A DNA stretch of 64,000 nucleotides from an uncultured Phycisphaerales bacterium (GCA_963758525.1 CAVWVQ010000003.1:2848001-2912000); one strand, 5' to 3'; positions 1,477-55,452 are shown, counted from the first letter of the stretch. Notes: generated from the letters alone by a model not told the origin. Program-made: numbers and translations.

Positions 1477-4400
1477 ATGCATTGGATGAACTTCATCAAC
1501 TGGTTTGCCGGGGGGGAAAACCCCTACCACACGCTCTACCACTGCATGCGTGGCGATACGCCGTGGGTGGTCACCACGGTCGCGCTCGATCTGGCTGTTG
1601 CGATGGGGTATCTGCTGATCGCCAAGCACTGGTGGGAAAACGAGCGACAACTCAACAACACGAATGCAGCCAAAATCGCGCTGGGGCGGTTGAAAAACAT
1701 CTTCATCTTCTGCGGAATCTGCGGCTATGTGTTCATCCCCATCAAGATGTTCTGGCCGGCATGGCGGCTTTACGACATGTTTATGGGGGTGCTGGTTCTG
1801 TTCACATGGCGGTATGCGCTGGGGGCGCACGACTTGAAGGTGATTTATAGCGCCGTGAAGGGGAACGACAGGCTGGAGCGCGATCTGCAGGATTCTCTGG
1901 CCAATCGCGACCTTCTCGAGAGACTCGTCGCCGAACATACCAGTGAACTGGCCGCCGCCAATGACGCGCTGCGGCGCAGATCGCGGAAAAAGAAGCGGCG
2001 TCGCAGGCGCTGACGATGGAGCGCAATCTGCTGCGCACGCTGATCGACGCGGTGCCGGATCTGATCTACGCCAAAGGGCTCGATGGAAAATACGTTTTAA
2101 GCAACGTGGCCCATTCGCGGTTTGTCGGCCAGCCGGTGCCGGACAACGTCATCGGACATTGCGCCGCTGATTTCTTTCCGACAAATGTTGCCGCCAAACT
2201 CGATCTCGACGACCAGAAGATCTTTCGCCTTGGCGTTCTCATGCTCAACGGCGAGGATCCGATCGCCGATTCCGACGGCCATACGATGTGGATGGCGCGC
2301 ACGAAGGTTCCGCTGCGCGATCCCGCGGGAAAAATCGTGGGCCTGGTTGGAATCAGCCGGAACATCACGCTTCGCAAGGAAGCTGAGGCCCGGCTCAATG
2401 CTCTGAACGAAACGCTCGAGGAGCGTGTCGCGGAGCGGAGCGCCGCCGCCGAGCAGCGTGCCGGGCTGCTGTCGCGATCGGAGGACGCGCTTCGGACGCA
2501 GACGCGCATTTTGCGCCTGGTGCTGACGAGCATGGGCGACGGAGTCGTCGTCGCAGAGAAGGGCGGGCGCGTGATTCTCAACAATCCGGCGGCAGCGCAG
2601 TGGTTCGGACCGGTTCTGGCGGAAACGCGCGCCGACGAACAGCTTCTGGGACTTTATCTGCCCGATGGGCAGACCCCGTATCCTGCCGGCGATCGGCCGC
2701 TCGCCCGCGCCTGCGCGGCGAAGCGGTCAACGAAGCCGAGTCGGTCTTCCGTCGCACGCCCGAGGCTGAAGGGATCTGGCTCAGCGCCACGGCCCGTCCG
2801 CTGCGCGACGACGATGGGACCGTGCAGGGCGCGGTGGTCGTCTACCGGGATATCACTGGGCGAAAACGTGATGAAGCAAACCTGGCCGAGTCAGAGGAGC
2901 GATTCCGTCAGTTGGCCGAGTGCATCGATGAAGTGTTCTGGCTGCACGATCCGGTCGCCGGGCGCATGATCTACGTAAGCCCGACCTATCAGAACGTCTG
3001 GGGGCGCCCCGCGGCCAGTTTGTACGAGGATGCCGGATCACTGCTGGCCGCGATTCATCCCGATGACCGCGATCGCGTGGCGGCCGCGATCGAACGCCAG
3101 AGCCGCGGCGCCAACACGAGCGAGGAATACCGGATTCTGCGCCCGACGGCACGATGCGCTGGATTTGGGATCGCGGTTTTCCGATCAAGGACCGCAACAA
3201 GCACACATACCGCGTTGCCGGCGTCGCGGAGGACATCACCGACCGCAAGCAAGTGGGGGCTGAACTGCAGAAAGCCAAGGAAGACGCCGAGGCCGCGAAC
3301 CGCGCCAAGAGCGAGTTCCTGGCGAACATGAGCCACGAGATCCGCACCCCGATGACCGCGATCATTGGTTTCGCGGACATGATGCTTCAGCCGCATCAGA
3401 CCGCGTGCGATCGCAACGAGTGCGTTCAGGTCGTTCGCCGCAACGCCCGGCATCTGCTGGGGTTGATCAACGACATTCTCGATCTCTCCAAGATCGAAGC
3501 GGGGAAGATGACCGTCGAGCGGATTCCGTGCGACGTGCCGCAGCTCATGGCCGACGTGCTGTCGCTGATGCGTCCCCGCGCGAGGAAAAGGGGCTGCGGC
3601 TCGACGTGGACTTCGACGGGGCGATTCCCCGCAAGATCATGACAGATCCTCTGCGGCTGCGGCAGATCATCGTCAACCTTCTGGGCAATGCCATCAAGTT
3701 CACGAATGAGGGATTGATCGCGGTGCGAGTGCGATGCGAGGGGACCGGAGCATCCAACGTATTGCGGATCGACGTCACCGACAGCGGCATCGGGATGACC
3801 CGGGAGCAGATCGGGCGTCTGTTTCAACCATTCACGCAGGCTGACGAATCCACCACGCGCCGTTTCGGGGGCACCGGCCTGGGGCTGACCATCAGCCGGA
3901 AGCTGGCAAATCTGCTGGGCGGCGATATCGGCATCGAATCCGAACCGGGCATCGGGAGCACCTTTACCGTGTGGATCGGTTGCGGTTCGTGCGTTGGCGT
4001 CGAGCTGATCCAGGGGCTGACGGAAGAAAAGCTTCCCAGCGGCGGAGAAGAGGGGCAGTCGGATCACTTGCTGATTCGCGGCCGAATTCTGCTTGCCGAG
4101 GACGGCCGCGACAATCAGCGTCTGATCTCGACGCACCTTCGGACCGCCGGCGCCGAAGTGGAGATCGCCGACAACGGCCGGGCGGCGGTGGAGATGGCCC
4201 GCTCGCAGCCGTTCGACCTGATCCTGATGGACATGCAGATGCCGGAATTGGACGGATACGACGCCACCGCAGAATTGCGATCCCAGGGCTTCGCGCTCCC
4301 GATTATCGCGCTGACGGCCAATGCCATGTCCGAGGATCGCGCCAAATGCATCGCCAGCGGATGCACCGACTATCTCACGAAACCCATCGAAAGAGGGATA

Positions 4401-4850
4401 CTCTTGAAAACCGTATTGCACCATTTAGGACAATCCGATGTGACGCGTCCCGCCAGCGCCGCCCCTGTCGAATCGCCCAGGCTGCAGTCACGGCCGGATG
4501 TCAGCGAGGGGCCGATCACCAGCACGCTGAACGACTATCCCGGAATGAAAAACATCATTCTTGAGTTTGTCGCGGGTCTTCCGGAGGAAGTGAAGAAAAT
4601 GCAGGAGCTGATGGACGGTCACGACCTCTCGCTGCTCAAGCGTGCGGTGCATCAGCTTCGCGGCGCCGGCGGCGGATATGGGTTTGACGCGATCTCCGAA
4701 AAGGCGACGGCCGCCGAAGAGTCGATCAAGGCGTCCGATAATCTCGAGACGATCCAGGCGAAGATTAATTCCCTGATTGACGTGATTCATCGCATCGAGG
4801 GATTCGACAAGAACAAGGAGAACGCCGCGCTCAAAGGAGATCGCTCATGA
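1477..4850 (+). CDS. Membrane-anchored hybrid sensor histidine kinase (TM sensor, PAS x3, HisKA, HATPase, REC, Hpt), split by about 4 frameshifts
   Basis: ORF pieces 1477-2013, 2016-2969, 2600-3331, 3154-3642 and 3405-4850 join into one protein; motifs [38 protein letters not shown] and Hpt HQLRGAGG. Confidence 0.85.
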
Positions 4851-5743
4851 AGGATACCGTATTGATCGTTGACGATTCGCCGCACGTGCACAAGCTCGTC
4901 GGCGCCTATCTGAAGAACGACGACATCTCCCTGCAGTCCGCCTTTGACGGGGAAGCAGCGATCTCCAGCGCTTCCCAGCGGCGGCCGAGCCTCATCCTTC
5001 TGGACGTGGACATGCCGCAGGTCGACGGGTTTGAAGTGTGCCGGCGTCTTCGCTCCAATCCCGCGACCAACGACACGCCGGTGATGTTCGTCACCGCCGA
5101 CGGCTCGCTCTCCGACAAGGTGAAGGGGCTGAACCTGGGGGCGGTCGACTACATCACCAAGCCATTCAAACCTGAAGAATTGCAGGCCCGTGTGCAGGCG
5201 GCGCTGCGGGCGCGGCGGCAGTTGGCGGCGACTTCATTGGTGGACGGCATCTCCGGACTGTGGAACGAGTCCTACCTGCAGCAGCATCTCCCCGCGCAGA
5301 TCTCGCTGGCGCGGCGCAGCGGGCAATCGCTCTCGTGCGTTGCCGCAAACATCGATGCGCTGCACCGGATCAATCACGACAAAGGTCAGGCCGCCGGCGA
5401 CGACATCGTGCGCGCGGTCGGGCACATTCTGCTGAGCCATTGCCGCGCGGAAGACATCGCGTGCCATTGCCATGAGAAGTTCGTGCTCCTTTTGCCAGGC
5501 ACGTCACGCGTTGGCGCAGCGAAGCTTGCCGATCGGGCGCGTACGGAAATCGAACGGCAGCTCCGTCATCGAGCCGGCGAAGGAATCGAGGTGACCTGCA
5601 GCTTCGGCGTTGCCGACACCCACGGGGAGACTGACCTGTCGGTGGTCGATGGCGCCGACGCCGCTCTCTACCGCGCCAAGCAGAGCGGCGGAAACAAGGT
5701 TTCCATCAGCCGCCCGCCGCAGGCGGACTGCACGGGCGCGTAA
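4847..5743 (+). CDS. REC-GGDEF response regulator, degenerate active site
   Basis: REC LILLDVDMP...YITKPF; the GGDEF position reads RAEDIACHCHEKF. Confidence 0.85.
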   Translation: MKDTVLIVDDSPHVHKLVGAYLKNDDISLQSAFDGEAAISSASQRRPSLILLDVDMPQVDGFEVCRRLRSNPATNDTPVMFVTADGSLSDKVKGLNLGAVDYITKPFKPEELQARVQAALRARRQLAATSLVDGISGLWNESYLQQHLPAQISLARRSGQSLSCVAANIDALHRINHDKGQAAGDDIVRAVGHILLSHCRAEDIACHCHEKFVLLLPGTSRVGAAKLADRARTEIERQLRHRAGEGIEVTCSFGVADTHGETDLSVVDGADAALYRAKQSGGNKVSISRPPQADCTGA

Positions 5744-5787
5744 CATGGTTCAGGATGCAAGGGAACGTGGTCCCGCTCCGCTGACTT

Positions 5788-5880
5788 TAGATTTTCATTT
5801 TTCATTTTTCATTTTTCATTCTTCCTTTGCGGAGAATGAAAAATGCTCAATGAAAAGTGAAAAATGAAAAAGTGGAAATT
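5788..5880. repeat. AT-rich heptamer tract (TTTTCAT)n followed by an inverted (ATGAAAA)-like tract, forming an imperfect hairpin
   Basis: attttcatttttcatttttcatttttcatt...aatgaaaaatg...tgaaaagtgaaaaatgaaaa. Confidence 0.75.
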
Positions 5881-6065
5881 GAGTCCGCTTCCTGAACCGT
5901 AAAACCCCTCTTCGCGCGGGTATCTTCCGCGCGAGCGCGGTTCCCGTGCGCCGCTCATCCCAGAAAAACGGTCTTTTCAGATTGTTGCTAATGCCGGGGC
6001 ACGATCCGCTCGACGAAGAAGATGGCGCGACAAGCGCCCGGCGGACAGATAGAAGGAGATGGAAA

Positions 6066-6973
6066 ATGCCTCAAACGGTGTTGCTTGTGGACGACTCGAT
6101 TCCCCTTCACAAGCTGGTGCGCGCGCAGCTCGAGGCCGAGCCGGTGGAAGTCCACTCCGCCTACGACGGCGAAGCCGCTCTCAATGCCGCGGTTTCCCTC
6201 CGGCCGACACTGATCCTTCTTGACGTCGACATGCCTGAATTGGACGGCTTCGAGGTCTGCCGACGCCTTAAGGGCAATCCGCTCACTGCCTCGATTCCCG
6301 TCATTTTTCTCACCGCCAACTCGCTGGTTGGCGACAAGGTGCGCGGCTTTGATACCGGCGGTGCGGATTACGTCACCAAGCCGTTCAAGCCGGAGGAGTT
6401 GCGGGCCCGCGTGCGCGGCCCTTCGCGCCAAGCATCAGCTGGAGAAGACGTCGATGGTCGATGCCGCGACCGGCATGTGGAATCGCTCGTATCTGGATTT
6501 GCATCTCAAAGCGCAGCTCTCGCTCGCCCGCCGCAGCAACCGGCCGCTCTCTTGCCTGATGATTGAGATCGATCGCTTTACCACGATGGCCGCGACGCAC
6601 GGCGTCAACGCCGCGCAGGAAGCGATCCGCGGCATCGCCCGCATCTCGCTCAGCCAGGTTCGCGCCGAGGACCTGATCTGCCGGTACACCGATTCGAAAA
6701 TCATCGTTCTCGTCAACGGCGCAGAATCGCGCCGCCGCGTCGCGGGTGGCAGAACGCCTGCGGCATGAAATCGAGCGTCAACTGGCGGTCGTCGATGGCA
6801 TGCCGGTCGGGCTCACCTGCAGCATCGGGGTTTCCGATACGCTCGTTGCCTCCGATGAGGCGTTGGTCGATCGCGCCGACGCCGCTGTCTCACGTGCCCG
6901 CCAATGCGGGCGAAACGCCGTTTTTGTCGCGCGTCCTGCTGCCGATGAGGCACACGCGGTCGCCGTCGCCTGA
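6066..6973 (+). CDS. REC-GGDEF response regulator, degenerate active site, 2 frameshifts
   Basis: MPQTVLLVDDS REC domain continues in ORFs 6220-6768 and 6746-6973; the GGDEF position reads RAEDLICRYTDSKI. Confidence 0.75.
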
Positions 6974-6995
6974 CACTGAACACGAGGTCCGCATC

Positions 6996-7934
6996 ATGCA
7001 ACAGCAACTGCTTCTCATCGACGACTCCAAGCACATTCATCCGCTGATCAAGGCGCTCCTCGCCGACGAGCAGTTGGAGATTCACTCGGCGTACGACGCC
7101 GAGTTCGGCCTCAGCATGATCAAGTCGCTCCGCCCGGATCTGATCCTCATGGACGTCGATATGCCGGGCATCAACGGCTTCGAAGCGTGCAAGCGGCTCA
7201 AGAGCGACCCGACCAACGCATCGATCCCGCTCATCTTCCTCACCAGTTGCGGCTCGATCGAGGAGAAGGTGCGCGGACTGGAACTGGGCGCGGTCGACTA
7301 TGTCACCAAGCCCTGCAACCGCGCCGAGCTGCAGGCCCGCGTGCGCGCGTCGCTCCGCATGAGCCAGTTGATCCGCCTTCTGGAAGAAAAAGCGCTGATT
7401 GACGCCCTTACCGGCCTTGGCAATCGCGCGATGTTTGAACAGCGCCTCGCCGCGGAGGTCGCCCTGCGCATTCGTTCCGGCGCGCCTCTCGCCTGCATAC
7501 TGATGGACCTCGACCAGTTTAAGTCGATCAACGATTCCTTCGGACATCCCTTTGGCGACATGGTGCTGCGGAAGGTCGCGTCGATCATAGCCGAGCATTG
7601 CCGGACGGAAGATGTCGCCTGCCGGCTTGGCGGAGAGGAATTCGTCGTCCTCTCGCCCAATACCAGCGCCGAACAGGCAACGATGCTCGCCGAGCGGATG
7701 CGTGCGGCGATTGCCAAAACTTCATTCGTGCAGGGCGGCAAGACCGTCGCCGTCACGTCCAGTTTCGGCGTGGTCGACGCCGGCGACCCGTACGACCGTT
7801 CCCTCCTGGAGCGAGCGGATGCCGCTCTCTATGAGTCCAAGCAGCAAGGCCGAAACCGCGTGACCGCCGCGATGGCGCCAACTCAATCGATCTCGTCGGC
7901 CATGCACGCGATGCCCAGGACGGCAGTCGCTTAG
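6996..7934 (+). CDS. REC-GGDEF diguanylate cyclase (PleD/WspR-like), intact GGEEF
   Basis: DALTGLGNR, DLDQFKSINDSFGH, RTEDVACRLGGEEF. Confidence 0.9.
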   Translation: MQQQLLLIDDSKHIHPLIKALLADEQLEIHSAYDAEFGLSMIKSLRPDLILMDVDMPGINGFEACKRLKSDPTNASIPLIFLTSCGSIEEKVRGLELGAVDYVTKPCNRAELQARVRASLRMSQLIRLLEEKALIDALTGLGNRAMFEQRLAAEVALRIRSGAPLACILMDLDQFKSINDSFGHPFGDMVLRKVASIIAEHCRTEDVACRLGGEEFVVLSPNTSAEQATMLAERMRAAIAKTSFVQGGKTVAVTSSFGVVDAGDPYDRSLLERADAALYESKQQGRNRVTAAMAPTQSISSAMHAMPRTAVA

Positions 7935-8183: not shown

Positions 8184-10854
8184 ATGGAACGCCGCCTCAT
8201 CTTCATTCGCGGGATTGTGCAGGGCGTGGGCTTTCGTCCGTTTGTTTTTAACCTGGCGTCTCAACTGAGTCTCACCGGATTTGTCAGGAATGATGACGGG
8301 ACGGTGGCGATCGAGGTGGAGGGGGAGTCGGGCGCGCTGGATCGCTTCGCGACGGAACTTTCGGAGCATCCGCCGGCGCTGGCACGCATCGAATCAATCT
8401 CCAGTGCGTCGGTGCAACTCAAGGGGGAGCGGGAATTTCGGATTGAGACGAGCCGTGCGGGTGAATCGGGCGCGCAGCGATCGGTCTTCATCTCCCCGGA
8501 CGTCGCGACGTGCGACGATTGCCTGCGCGAACTGTTCGATCCGAAGGATCGCCGGTACCGCTATCCCTTCATCAACTGCACGAACTGCGGCCCGCGGCTC
8601 ACGATCGTCACGGGCGCACCCTACGACCGGCCGCGAACAACGATGGCGTTGTTCGCGATGTGCCGGCAATGTCAGGCGGAATACGACGACCCGCGCGACC
8701 GGCGGTTTCACGCGCAGCCGACGTGTTGCCCTCGATGCGGGCCGCAGTTGGAACTGCTCGATGCACAGGGGAAAACGGTCGCATCAGATGATCCGGTGAG
8801 AACGACAGCTGATGCACTTCGCGCGGGCGGGATTGTGGCGATCAAGGGGCTGGGCGGGTTTCATCTGGCGTGCAGCGCGCTCGACGACCAAGTGGTGCGC
8901 GCACTGCGGGAGCGGAAGCATCGTGACGAGAAGCCGTTCGCGATCATGGTTTCCAACGTTGCCGCGGCTCGCGTTTTGTGTGAGGTCGGGCCGGCGGAGG
9001 CGGGGCTGTTGCGATCCCCGTCGGCGCCGATTGTGCTTCTTGCGAGGAAGTCGCTTCAGCACCTCCTGTCGGCAGATGTCGACGGCGACGGTGATCTCAA
9101 AGATGGGCCGACTCTCGCAAACTTCCAAATCACCCTCACCCCAACCCTCTCCCGGGGTACCGGGAGAGGGGGAAATGAAACGGAGTCAAAGGGCGGGCAA
9201 TTCGTGGCGGATGCAGTTGCGCCGGGGAATCCGTCGCTGGGCGTGATGGTTCCGTATACGCCGTTGCATCATCTTTTGTTTGATGGAACCGGTGGACTCC
9301 CGCTGGTAATGACCAGCGGAAATCGGTCCGATGAGCCCATCGCATATGAGAACGACGACGCGGTCGCACGGCTCAGCGGGATCGCGGATCTGTTTCTCGT
9401 TCACAATCGGCCGATTCAGGTGCGGTGCGATGATTCGGTGACGCGGGTTGTTGTGGGGTTGGAGGCGAGCACGTCCCCCTCCCCTGGTACTCCGGGGGAG
9501 GGCCGGGGTGGGGGCCTGACGCGCGCGGATGCGCAGCCACCAAATTCCGCTCCCACGATCCTCTCGCGAATTACCACAATAGAGAGATCGAGCGATTCAG
9601 GCCATGGCTTTGAAGCTCTCGGCGGTGCAGCGGAACGCTCCGCGGCATCAGCACTCCGGTCGGAATTGCCAATCCGGCGATCGCGCGGCTATGCGCCGCA
9701 GCCGATCGCGATGCCCCTCGTATGTCGGCTTCCGATGCTGGCAGTGGGGGGGCAATTGAAGGGAACGGTTGCGCTGGGTCGCGATCGGCACGCGTTTGTG
9801 AGCCACCATTTGGGGGATCTCGACCACTACGAAGCGTTCAAGGCGTTCGAGCGCGACATCGCGTTGTACGAGCAACTTTTCGATGTGAAGCCTCGGCAGA
9901 TCGTTCACGATCTGCATCCCGATTATGCATCCACCGGCTATGCGATGCGGCGGGGCGCTGCGGAGAACGTGCGACTGATCGGCGTGCAGCATCATCATGC
10001 GCACATGGCTTCATGCATGGCGGAAAATCGTTTGGGCGGCCCGGTCATCGGCGTGAGTTTCGACGGCACGGGCTACGGCCTTGATGGAGCCGTGTGGGGC
10101 GGGGAATTTCTCATCGGGGATTATCGTACGTTTGAGCGGGCAGCGCATCTGCGCTACGTGCGGATGCCGGGAGCCGACACGGCAATTCGCGAGCCGTGGC
10201 GGATGGCGCTGGCCCACTTGCTGGATGCAGAGTGCGGCGACGCGGTGCTGCGCGACCGCATTTCGGAAAATATGTTGAAGACCGCACGGCAGATGATTTT
10301 GCGGGGTTTCAATTCGCCGCTGACCAGCAGCATGGGCCGGCTGTTCGACGCGGTCGCGGCGCTGGCGGGGGTACGCGATCGCGTGAGCTACGAGGGCCAA
10401 GCGGCCATCGAATTGGAGTGGCTGTGCGCGCGATTCGACGGTGGTTGGCACCTACCCTTTTGAAATCTATCCCGCGCTTTCGCAGGGTAAGGAAAAAAAA
10501 CAACCGTTGACTGTCGACCCGCGCCGCATGATAGAATGTGTGTGTGAGGAGATTCGCGAGGGAGCGAGTTCCTCTGCCGTGGCGCGACGCTTTCACTCGA
10601 CGGTGGTCGAAATAATTGTTCGGGTGTGCGAGCGTTTGCGGAACGATGGTGGACCTGGCGTGGTTGTTCTCAGCGGCGGAGTTTTCATGAACGTCCTGCT
10701 GACCAGTGAAACGATCGCGCGTTTGCACGGAGCCGGCTTCCGCGTCTACCGTCACCGTCTCGTCCCGCCCAACGACGCTGGACTCAGCCTTGGACAACTT
10801 GCCATTGCCGCCGCGCGGGACCGTGACCCTGCTTCTTCATCCAGACCGGAGTAA
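8184..10854 (+). CDS. hypF: Carbamoyltransferase HypF, one frameshift near 10430, two in-frame repeat-containing insertions
   Basis: GIVQGVGFRP, CxxC zinc fingers (NCTNCGPR, FHAQPTCCPRCGP), RRSRGYAP, QHHHAH, PPNDAGLSLGQ. Confidence 0.93.
9130..9172 (+). repeat. Palindromic repeat (CCCTCACCCCAACCCTCTCCC-GTAC-GGGAGAGGG family) inside hypF
   Basis: Near-identical to the intergenic copy at about 55410-55452; read in frame as ITLTPTLSRGTGRG. Confidence 0.85.
9474..9515 (-). repeat. Same palindromic repeat family, opposite orientation, inside hypF
   Basis: tcccctcccctggtactccgggggagggccggggtggggg, read as SPSPGTPGEGRGG. Confidence 0.8.
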
Positions 10855-12298: not shown

Positions 12299-12416
12299 CG
12301 GAGCGATTGGAATGGCTTCCAAGCGCTCCACTGACGCGTCGTGGTAAACCGGGCGGAAGCGCTCGAATGTTGTTGGGTCGCTTCGGCTTGCGAAGCGACG
12401 CTTGCGGAAGGGTTTC

Positions 12417-13049
12417 ATGACGGCAATTTCTGAGCGGAACGCACCCCCGACCTTCGCCCCCGGCGAACTAGCCGCGAAAGTGATGCGCCAATGCCGGGAA
12501 GTTATCGCGACAAAAGAGGAGTTTTTTGCGCAGAACGCCGAGAAGATCTCGCAATGTGCGACTGCGATGTCTGATGCATTTGCGAAGGGGGGCCGGCTTC
12601 TGGTCTTCGGAAATGGAGGCAGTTCCTGCGATGCCTTGCACATGGTTGTCGAGTGCATGCATCCGATCATTCAAAAACGCCCCGCGCTCCCGGCGATCGC
12701 GTTGAACAGTGACATGGCGACCCTTACAGCGATTGGGAACGATCAGGATTTTTCCCTGGCCTACGTGCAGCAGCTTCAAGTGCTCGCCCGGCCAGGCGAC
12801 ATGGCGATGGGATTTTCCACCAGCGGGAAGTCCGCCAACGTCAACCGCGCTCTGCGGGCGGCGCGCGAAATGGGACTGCTTACCGTCGGATGCAGCGGCC
12901 GGGACGGCGGACGAATGCCCGAGTTCTCCGATTATTCTTTTGTGGTGCGCAGTTTCAGTATTCCCAGAATCCAGGAAACGCAGGAAACTTTGCTCCATAT
13001 CCTGTGGGACCTTGTCCATGTGGTCCGTGGTGAGGAAGATGTGTTGTAA
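12417..13049 (+). CDS. gmhA: SIS-domain protein, phosphoheptose isomerase (GmhA)-like
   Basis: GNGGSSCDA, TAIGND, STSGKSAN, RIQE. Confidence 0.8.
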   Translation: MTAISERNAPPTFAPGELAAKVMRQCREVIATKEEFFAQNAEKISQCATAMSDAFAKGGRLLVFGNGGSSCDALHMVVECMHPIIQKRPALPAIALNSDMATLTAIGNDQDFSLAYVQQLQVLARPGDMAMGFSTSGKSANVNRALRAAREMGLLTVGCSGRDGGRMPEFSDYSFVVRSFSIPRIQETQETLLHILWDLVHVVRGEEDVL

Positions 13050-17143: not shown

Positions 17144-17260
17144 TCCCCTCTCCCGGTACGCCGGGAGAGGGTCGGGGTGAGGGTGATTTCGAAGTCGAGT
17201 GCACGTGGTGCTCGAAGTCACCCTCATCCTAACCTTCGCCCGGGGTACCGGGAGAAGGGA
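17144..17260. repeat. Bipartite palindromic repeat, intergenic copy
   Basis: cccctctcccggtacgccgggagagggtcggggtgagggtga...tcaccctcatcctaaccttcgcccggggtaccgggagaaggg. Confidence 0.85.
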
Positions 17261-28051: not shown

Positions 28052-28744
28052 ATGGCCCGTAAACCCCGATTCTCCCCCGGCGGCTTGGCGTATCACGTGA
28101 TGAACCGCACTCCGGGGAAGGTCAAGCTGTTCGAGGATGATGGAGACTATCAGGCGTTTGAGAAGGTGCTGATCGAGGCGATCGATCTGCATCGGGGAAT
28201 ACGGCTCTGCGCCTATTGCCTGATGCCCAACCACTTTCATCTGGTGCTCTATCCCAAGACCGACGGCCAATTGTCCCGCTTCATGCAGTGGCTCACCATG
28301 ACCCACGCGGCCCGCTGGCATGCCCATCGCCACAGTGTCGGGCGCGGGCATCTGTATCAGGGCCGCTTCCGGAGCTTCCCGATTCAGCGGGACGGGCATT
28401 TCCTGAGTGTCTGCCGGTATGTGGAGCGGAATGCGCTGCGGGCCAGTCTCGTGGCCAAGGCGCAGGACTGGCGATGGGGTTCGCTCTGGGCGAGGGATGA
28501 CCGCAGCAGCGCGATCGCCCGGTTTCTGGCGCCCTGGCCGGTGGAGATGCCAGGGAGATGGGTGACTCTGGTCAATCGGGCGGAAAGCGAGGTAGAGCTG
28601 GCCGCGTTGCGCCGCGCGGTTGCTCGCGGCCGTCCCTACGGCGATGATCGCTGGTCGCAGCGGACGGCCAAGGCGCTGGGCAGTGACAGCTCGTTGCGCC
28701 CGATCGGCCGGCCGAAGAAATCGAAGCCGCCGAGGAAGGGCTGA
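28052..28744 (+). CDS. REP-associated tyrosine transposase (RAYT/Y1 HUH family)
   Basis: YHVMNR, AYCLMPNHFHL (HUH), GHLYQGRFRS, RYVERN, WRWGS. Confidence 0.88.
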   Translation: MARKPRFSPGGLAYHVMNRTPGKVKLFEDDGDYQAFEKVLIEAIDLHRGIRLCAYCLMPNHFHLVLYPKTDGQLSRFMQWLTMTHAARWHAHRHSVGRGHLYQGRFRSFPIQRDGHFLSVCRYVERNALRASLVAKAQDWRWGSLWARDDRSSAIARFLAPWPVEMPGRWVTLVNRAESEVELAALRRAVARGRPYGDDRWSQRTAKALGSDSSLRPIGRPKKSKPPRKG

Positions 28745-55335: not shown

Positions 55336-55452
55336 TCCCCTCTCTCGGTACTCCGGGAGAGGGTGAGGGTGAGGGTGATTTCGAGCATCGATGGCACTTG
55401 ACATTCCAAATCACCCTCACCCCAACCCTCTCCCGGCGTACCGGGAGAGGGA
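55336..55452. repeat. Bipartite palindromic repeat, intergenic copy
   Basis: cccctctctcggtactccgggagagggtgagggtgagggtga...tcaccctcaccccaaccctctcccggcgtaccgggagaggg. Confidence 0.88.

Follow-up and report, generated by a model that had tools for sequence, protein, structure and literature searches.

Organisation of the locus

The window analysed here is a 64,000-nucleotide stretch from the genome of an uncultured Phycisphaerales bacterium (G000). An open reading frame on the + strand (1477-2013, 178 amino acids) begins with a putative membrane sensor domain and is the first piece of a hybrid histidine kinase gene, which is followed by three REC-GGDEF genes. The features are as follows, with residue equivalences taken from alignment:

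1477-1821, +: predicted ETR1-like three-helix membrane sensor domain of the CxxCG type, clade I (residues 1-115)
1543-1545, +: C23, the N-terminal Cys common to bacterial ethylene receptors, kept in 330 of 334 domains
1588-1620, +: D38-x6-Y45-x2-I48, equivalent to ETR1 Asp25, Tyr32 and Ile35; A49 stands in place of Pro36
1702-1728, +: F76-x2-C79-G-I-C82-G83-Y84, covering the ETR1 Ile62, Cys65, Thr68 and His69 positions (putative rewired metal site)
1744-1776, +: K90 ... P94 ... D100; K90 and D100 are clade I polar residues that co-occur with D38
1822-4850, +: rest of the hybrid histidine kinase, in pieces (coiled linker, three PAS, HisKA, HATPase_c, REC, Hpt)
4847-5743, +: REC-GGDEF 1, degenerate active site (HCHEK), RxxD kept; its start overlaps the kinase stop
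6066-6973, +: REC-GGDEF 2, degenerate active site, RxxD kept, frameshifts at about 6422 and 6723; ends approximate
6993-7934, +: REC-GGDEF 3, intact GGEEF and RxxD

As assembled, the first frame ends at 2013 and the kinase continues through four more. Comparison with the intact orthologue (locus L058, protein P0001) places four single-base deletions at about 1973, 2711, 3142 and 3583, and the relatives P0001-P0003 (1110-1129 amino acids, 69-76% identical over the domain) map onto the five window frames. All domains and motifs of a hybrid kinase phosphorelay are present, split by the four frameshifts here and intact in L058. We think it rather doubtful that the gene is a recent pseudogene and not the product of mis-assembly. 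Four frameshifts in 3,373 bases do exceed the background rate, which was 8 in 62,151 over the 50 query ORFs (of 153) that survived filtering (Poisson P about 0.001), and the second REC-GGDEF gene carries two more. However, all four kinase lesions are single-base deletions, mostly at short G or C runs, and 8 of the 50 conserved genes elsewhere in G000 are also broken. Moreover, the five pieces contain no in-frame stop and give a dN/dS of 0.08-0.17 against L058, a measure that is blind to very recent decay. Our conclusions about the family stand whether the kinase is a pseudogene or an assembly error.

Downstream, RxxD is present in all three REC-GGDEF proteins and GGEEF only in the third, which is probably an active diguanylate cyclase. 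The kinase and its REC-GGDEF cassette are intact in L058, and at L006 a similar cassette lies 3′ of the kinase and adjoins flagellar genes. The coupling to c-di-GMP genes proposed in an earlier note on this DNA is thereby upheld, with REC-GGDEF genes starting at 4847, a cassette kept in L058 and L006, and GGDEF-EAL fusions among relatives. It is likely that the sensor steers the choice between swimming and biofilm growth; SynEtr1 and AzoEtr1 both control biofilm (PMC11819568). Between REC-GGDEF 1 and 2 (5770-5890) lie short tandem repeats rich in T and, after them, an A-rich counterpart; L058 has none of this.

Relationship to the ETR1 ethylene-binding domain

The motifs that the earlier note had picked out are all present in the 1477-2013 frame: YHC (C23), D38-x6-Y45-x2-I48 and C79-G-I-C82-G-Y84 (nt 1711-1728), without the His, followed by WPAWRL. 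M103, just past D100, stands at the ETR1 Lys91 position. The charge bias of the domain fits an N-out/C-in arrangement, and an AlphaFold2 model built from a 49-row alignment predicts three long helices (28-58, 64-90 and 96-131; mean pLDDT 75), so that this signalling protein would begin with three membrane-spanning helices. C23 could possibly form an inter-subunit disulfide; a single N-terminal Cys is also described for cyanobacterial ethylene receptors (PMC6682694).

Scans of the sensor domain against Pfam and PHROGs returned no significant family. Neither the window protein nor the clade II protein at L048 reached the PF25487 (ETR1_N) cut-off, for which the control L023 scored 132.9 bits, and PF25487 had no match across the whole of G000. 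Because the Pfam model misses them, sensors of the CxxCG type are annotated just as generic kinases. A PDB sequence search with the window domain gave no match, and one with the canonical ETR1_N alignment found no solved domain. Fold searches of the domain against BFVD and PDB returned nothing at E<=0.001, and a wide fold search returned generic helical bundles only, the best being a designed protein (Z 10.0, rmsd 3.1, 95 aligned).

The canonical set for profile-profile comparison was gathered by PF25487 (13 of 301 genomes) and from plasmids, and includes AzoEtr1, whose length and D35/C75/H79/K98 agree with PMC11819568. With hhalign, clades I and II together matched 22 canonical sequences including AzoEtr1 at 95.7% (E 8.5e-9), clade II matched the canonical set at 95.6% (E 1.2e-8), and A1 matched A2 at 92.8% (E 4e-7); clade I alone was weaker against canonical profiles (33.6-42%). 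A reversed control gave 0.65% and the best of 50 column or block shuffles 12.9%. When searched against 401 genomes, the CxxCG family profile gave nine weak matches, eight of them ETR1_N-type, and in the Atlas features the top matches of both clades were ETR1_N clusters (0.95 and 0.94). Two loci, L005 and L187, were removed as spurious matches. Residues 1-115 are thus distantly homologous to the ETR1 ethylene-binding domain, although the Pfam ETR1_N model misses them. The homology asserted in the earlier note is borne out by the profile-profile search (95.7%, E 8.5e-9, against controls of at most 12.9%); of the two kinds of homology check it proposed, the profile match was obtained and the structural one produced only generic bundles. 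Judged by alignment, the CxxCG family is a homologue of the ETR1 domain, yet no member of it by the defining binding residues.

Distribution and architectures

A search with the domain found 338 longer proteins (120 of them listed) and 51 of near its own length; a two-clade profile search gave 570 matches (120 listed), and an exhaustive profile search gave 396 clusters at 50% identity, 281 of them at E<=1e-10 (150 listed). With 338 longer homologues and 396 clusters, the sensor domain is no chance pattern. All 14 named GTDB loci of the family are from Planctomycetota, as are all organism names among the family matches listed; this range rests on the named members, the 396 clusters carrying no names. 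Within the window's own class the domain occurs in 22 of 300 other genomes (24 matches in 301 genomes, minus G000 and one canonical domain; the match L054 is very divergent), and one genome, G576, has two. Another, G640, holds both L048 (clade II CxxCG) and L032 (a canonical-type domain without Asp25).

The 334 non-redundant, mostly full-length domains divide into 284 of clade I, the window type, and 50 of clade II. In its commonest form (36 of 80 loci) clade I is a kinase of about 400 amino acids with a lone receiver after it; clade II domains are fused to kinase-REC or GGDEF-EAL, the latter fusions making up 12 of 120 among the matches listed. The genes that recur beside the short form encode a HAD phosphatase (at 17 of the 80 loci), an NAD-dependent epimerase (at 15) and a K+ channel-like protein (at 10), none of which points to a ligand. 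The 50% representatives also include many members of 130-200 amino acids (P0373-P0412), which may be stand-alone proteins, phage proteins or fragments.

No relative turned up in viral scans that used A1 and L183 as queries. A viral contig, L202, does carry the CxxCG type, as a 192-amino-acid protein; the next protein is weakly PAS-like, and there is no kinase (L202:3986-5259). Separately, we observed small, mostly stand-alone ETR1_N proteins with an intact CGxxH in phage or prophage-like regions, past the tail genes or near lysis genes (L183:1468-1875, L169:1393-2262, L195, L196, L199, L200 and L201). L200 has a muramidase nearby, and gene 65 of Maribacter phage Molly_1, a 289-amino-acid ETR1_N protein, lies between tail genes and an amidase.

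Residues retained and lost

Assigning the metal-site residues depends on the alignment register. Used alone, hhalign put C79, G80 or C82 at Cys65, varying with the input, and the BLOSUM profile sum before gap costs was slightly in favour of C82 (30.3 vs 27.9); the conservation pattern preferred C79 (r 0.67 vs 0.29). Position 38 and C79 are 40 residues apart in 307 of 334 family domains, just as Asp25 and Cys65 are in 27 of 29 canonical rows. Two intermediates, L183 (CGVTH) and L201 (CGFGH), keep CGxxH and have a Cys-to-Pro distance of 15, as in the window domain, against 14 in canonical domains. An unforced 75-row alignment yields the C79 register, and in a quick tree of the same 75 rows a long branch (SH-aLRT 100) separates the CxxCG rows from all others, L183 and L201 being the closest to them; since this tree has few columns and is unrooted, we claim no order of events. 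The 40-residue spacing, the two intermediates and the unforced alignment therefore support C79 as the probable equivalent of Cys65, C82 of Thr68 and G83 of His69. Registers placing C82 or G80 at Cys65 were judged less likely. The register of the earlier note, with C79 at Cys65 and His69 replaced, is thus sustained.

Conservation was assessed in two sets, the 334 domains and the 148 of 150 listed clusters that cover helix 2. Within clade I (n=284) the Asp25, Tyr32, Ile35 and Cys65 positions are kept in 279, 283, 284 and 283 domains, respectively; Tyr32 is one of seven ethylene-binding residues. C79 is kept in 333 of 334 domains and 147 of 148 listed clusters, whereas Pro36, Ile62, His69 and Lys91 are each present in 0 of 334. 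Among the 148 listed clusters, position 82 is Cys in 119, Thr in 13 and Ser in 9 (141 together), position 83 is Gly in 139 and His in none, Tyr84 is found in 142 and Asp38 in only 28. The complete CxxC occurs in 118 of these clusters; in the domain set, 279 of the 284 in clade I and 40 of the 50 in clade II have it. At the Asp25 position clade II has Asn in 26 of 50. Y45, W52, F76, Y84, R97 and W111 make up a near-invariant aromatic and polar shell. The first Cys is thus the core of the site, the second usual but replaceable, and the Asp specific to a clade and not family-wide. The co-occurrence of D38 with K90 and D100 in clade I is a hint only, because it represents one evolutionary event.

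The divergent, conserved subfamily that the earlier note foresaw therefore exists, as 334 domains in two clades with C79 in 147 of 148 listed clusters. Its expectation of a conserved CxxC holds for the near-invariant C79, though not strictly for the pair (118 of 148). The Asp that it pointed out is kept in the window protein and clade I, though not across the family (28 of 148). The losses of Pro36, Ile62 and Lys91, like the kinase frameshifts, are absent from that note.

Discussion

Arabidopsis ETR1 likewise has a three-helix N-terminal membrane domain ahead of its kinase (PF25487; PMC10266040 and PMC6586836). The window domain resembles it in the Asp25, Tyr32, Ile35 and Cys65 positions, the 40-residue Asp-Cys distance and a small hydroxyl at Ser98 (T110 here), but differs in having His69 changed to Gly, Thr68 to Cys, Ile62 to Phe, Pro36 to Ala and Lys91 to Met, together with a one-residue insertion before the loop Pro, no GAF and no PF25487 score. 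AzoEtr1 (Azospirillum brasilense Sp7, 525 amino acids, L168) and SynEtr1 (Synechocystis) also have an N-terminal Cys followed by PAS and a histidine kinase (PMC11819568), and a lifestyle output is likely to be common to them and the window sensor. However, these receptors keep D35/C75/H79/K98 and bind ethylene, whereas the window sensor is without the His and Lys and its protein is a hybrid kinase with Hpt, encoded at the head of a REC-GGDEF cluster. Canonical planctomycete ETR1_N kinases (L020-L032, L182-L190) and the phage-type L183 and L201 have YMPRxxC and WPAYRL in common with clade II, and L183 and L201 additionally show the one-residue insertion of the CxxCG family, but all of these keep CGxxH, and the CxxCG family lies beyond the long, 100%-supported branch. 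Two cysteines three apart are also found in Cu(I)- and thiol-handling CxxC proteins of the Atx1/CopZ and thioredoxin folds. Those folds are unrelated: no Pfam match to such a soluble alpha/beta fold appeared at E<=1, and the predicted model is all-helical. No description of the His-less family was found in the mostly open-access literature searched; the 1,221-sequence alignment behind PMC10266040 could include His-less members. We regard the CxxCG family as genuine, a variant group of ethylene-receptor domains that Pfam does not see.

Because hundreds of proteins, all uncharacterised, are built to this design, the sensor likely detects a small molecule, and one other than ethylene. In our preferred reading, to which we assign a probability of about 0.4, the ETR1-derived domain would hold Cu(I) in a thiolate site where one position is left open to some other small ligand. 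We favour it because the His, Lys and (mostly) Asp relay has been lost while the Cu-binding Cys is kept and a sulfur has been added beside it. The copper site would have changed from Cys/His to Cys/Cys/Gly with Cu(I) still on cysteine sulfur. C79 would be the main thiolate and position 82 a second donor (Cys, or Thr/Ser in about 15% of the diverse listed members); at Gly83 the space of the lost imidazole may be left free for a soft ligand, perhaps CO, NO or a sulfur volatile. The Asp25 relay could be dispensable with His69 and Lys91 gone, and in clade I D38 may pair instead with K90/D100. The signal would then pass from helix 3 through the three PAS domains to the kinase, its REC and Hpt, and on to the three REC-GGDEF proteins (one predicted to be catalytic, two degenerate), which may set c-di-GMP and hence a motile or attached lifestyle. 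Several properties of ETR1 given in PMC10266040 bear on this scheme: Cys65 and His69 are the Cu(I) ligands, Asp25 polarises His69 and bridges to Lys91, Thr68 lies 2.7 Å from the Cu in the model, and lower coordination numbers favour Cu(I). Against it, the second Cys is missing in 29 of 148 listed clusters, and the loss of the His may cost the metal, because the ETR1 C65S/H69A double mutant retains only residual Cu binding (PMC10266040).

A metal-free thiol redox switch, in which a reversible C79-C82 disulfide or a reaction with membrane quinones or oxidants moves helix 3, is unlikely in our judgement. In its favour, the CxxC is present in nearly all clade I domains (279 of 284) and in most of clade II (40 of 50), the His ligand is lost, and CxxT and CxxS variants do occur in redox proteins. 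But an i,i+3 disulfide in the middle of a helix is strained, the same 29 clusters keep C79 alone, and no redox gene recurs nearby (one MsrA and two aldo-keto reductases in the 55 neighbours scanned). Somewhat less probable again is a site with neither metal nor redox chemistry, where the domain would offer a pocket for an organic or lipid ligand, or register a membrane state, and C79 would serve packing or covalent chemistry. The near-invariant shell of Y45, W52, F76, Y84, R97 and W111 is what such a pocket might look like, and three of the seven ethylene residues are lost along with Lys91; yet the residue kept best of all (147 of 148 listed clusters) is the one Cys by which ETR1 binds Cu, and an O or S donor is kept at position 82 in 141.

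We consider it distinctly unlikely that the domain is still a receptor for ethylene or another alkene, of lower affinity and with Cys82 replacing His69 as second Cu ligand, even though D25, Y32, I35 and C65 are kept in clade I and G000 has no canonical receptor. The Phe at the Ile62 position reproduces the etr1-4 change, which abolishes ethylene binding. Two points in PMC10266040 speak for retained binding: anionic donors favour Cu(I)-ethylene back-bonding, and a natural D25N variant works. In our own set, clade II has Asn there in 26 of 50. However, PMC10266040 also reports that K91M cuts ETR1 binding to 6% of wild type, and the essential residues named in PMC6586836 (Ile35, Pro36, Ile62, Cys65 and His69 among them) include three, Pro36, Ile62 and His69, that are absent in 334 of 334 domains. 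With Pro36, Ile62, His69 and Lys91 gone, the window sensor is therefore unlikely to bind ethylene with high affinity.

That Cu(I) itself, or another soft metal, is the signal and is bound reversibly by the CxxC seems very unlikely. A bis-thiolate CxxC is a classic Cu(I) motif and the ancestry is from a Cu-binding fold, but no copper pump, oxidase or efflux gene is among the recurring neighbours at the 80 loci, no copper gene turned up in a scan of 55 of the 131 listed neighbours (E<=1e-12), and the outputs are c-di-GMP enzymes and lone receivers.

A bolder extension of the Cu(I)-thiolate reading, which we put forward as speculation of rather low probability, is that the CxxCG proteins form a hitherto undescribed sister group to the ethylene receptors, wide in distribution, whose Cu(I)-bis-thiolate, buried in the membrane, senses another gas or volatile (a sulfur volatile, CO or NO), and that they arose via phage-borne ETR1-like proteins. 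Small phage-borne proteins do show intermediate states (CGVTH in L183, CGFGH in L201). If this were true, the ETR1 fold would be a general, re-tunable module for copper-based gas sensing. The ligand geometry of the ethylene receptor copper site is itself debated, and no solved structure appeared in our PDB sequence search; the joint loss of His69, Lys91, Pro36 and Ile62 with Cys65 kept amounts to a natural experiment on what this fold binds without its histidine. Some carriers are in culture (Tautonia plasticadhaerens WP_145270814.1, Humisphaera borealis WP_206292137.1 and Tundrisphaera lichenicola P12), so the signal is directly testable with existing ETR1 assays. Such work could uncover a further signal that feeds into biofilm control in planctomycetes, or provide gas biosensors with a new scaffold.

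The neighbouring hydrogenase cluster

The earlier note placed the sensor directly upstream of both the c-di-GMP genes and an H2-scavenging cluster. The first part is accurate, the cassette beginning at 4847; hypF and hhyL, however, lie 6.7 kb and 13.8 kb downstream of the sensor start. A role as H2 sensor or regulator of this cluster is highly improbable: the genes are on the same strand with 250 bp between REC-GGDEF 3 and hypF in this genome, but none of the 22 other carrier genomes has an HhyL match, none of the eight HhyL genomes has the domain, and the hydrogenase clusters of G672, G406 and G534, one of them from the same genus, are without the sensor. The zero overlap of the 22 carriers with the 29 genomes holding any HhyL match, or the eight with close HhyL, amounts to no association and not to exclusion, since chance predicts just 2.1 and 0.6. 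At relatives' loci no hyp or hhy gene was seen in 117 (25 of at least 10 kb) or in an overlapping 110 (28 of at least 15 kb); short loci are uninformative on this point, and L058 ends 370 bases past the cassette. The proposed link to hhyL is thus unsupported and largely refuted, the cluster being in all likelihood a chance neighbour. The likeness of CGICG to the HhyL nickel motif RICGIC was treated as coincidence.

Further observations concern the cluster itself. The hypF gene (8184-10854) has an apparent frameshift split near 10450, in keeping with the indel load of the genome. REP-like palindromes occur at 9145-9170, 17146-17171 and 55426-55451, with 86 exact-pattern copies in G000; one sits in frame within hypF, which is longer than its relatives, and ORF 28052-28744 encodes what we take to be a protein resembling REP-associated transposases. 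Between hypD and hypE lies a gene that by resemblance is GmhA/SIS-like (12402-13049), also present in G672, G406 and G534. In G406 (L150:3045-7984) a different, divergently oriented REC/GGDEF pair precedes hypF.
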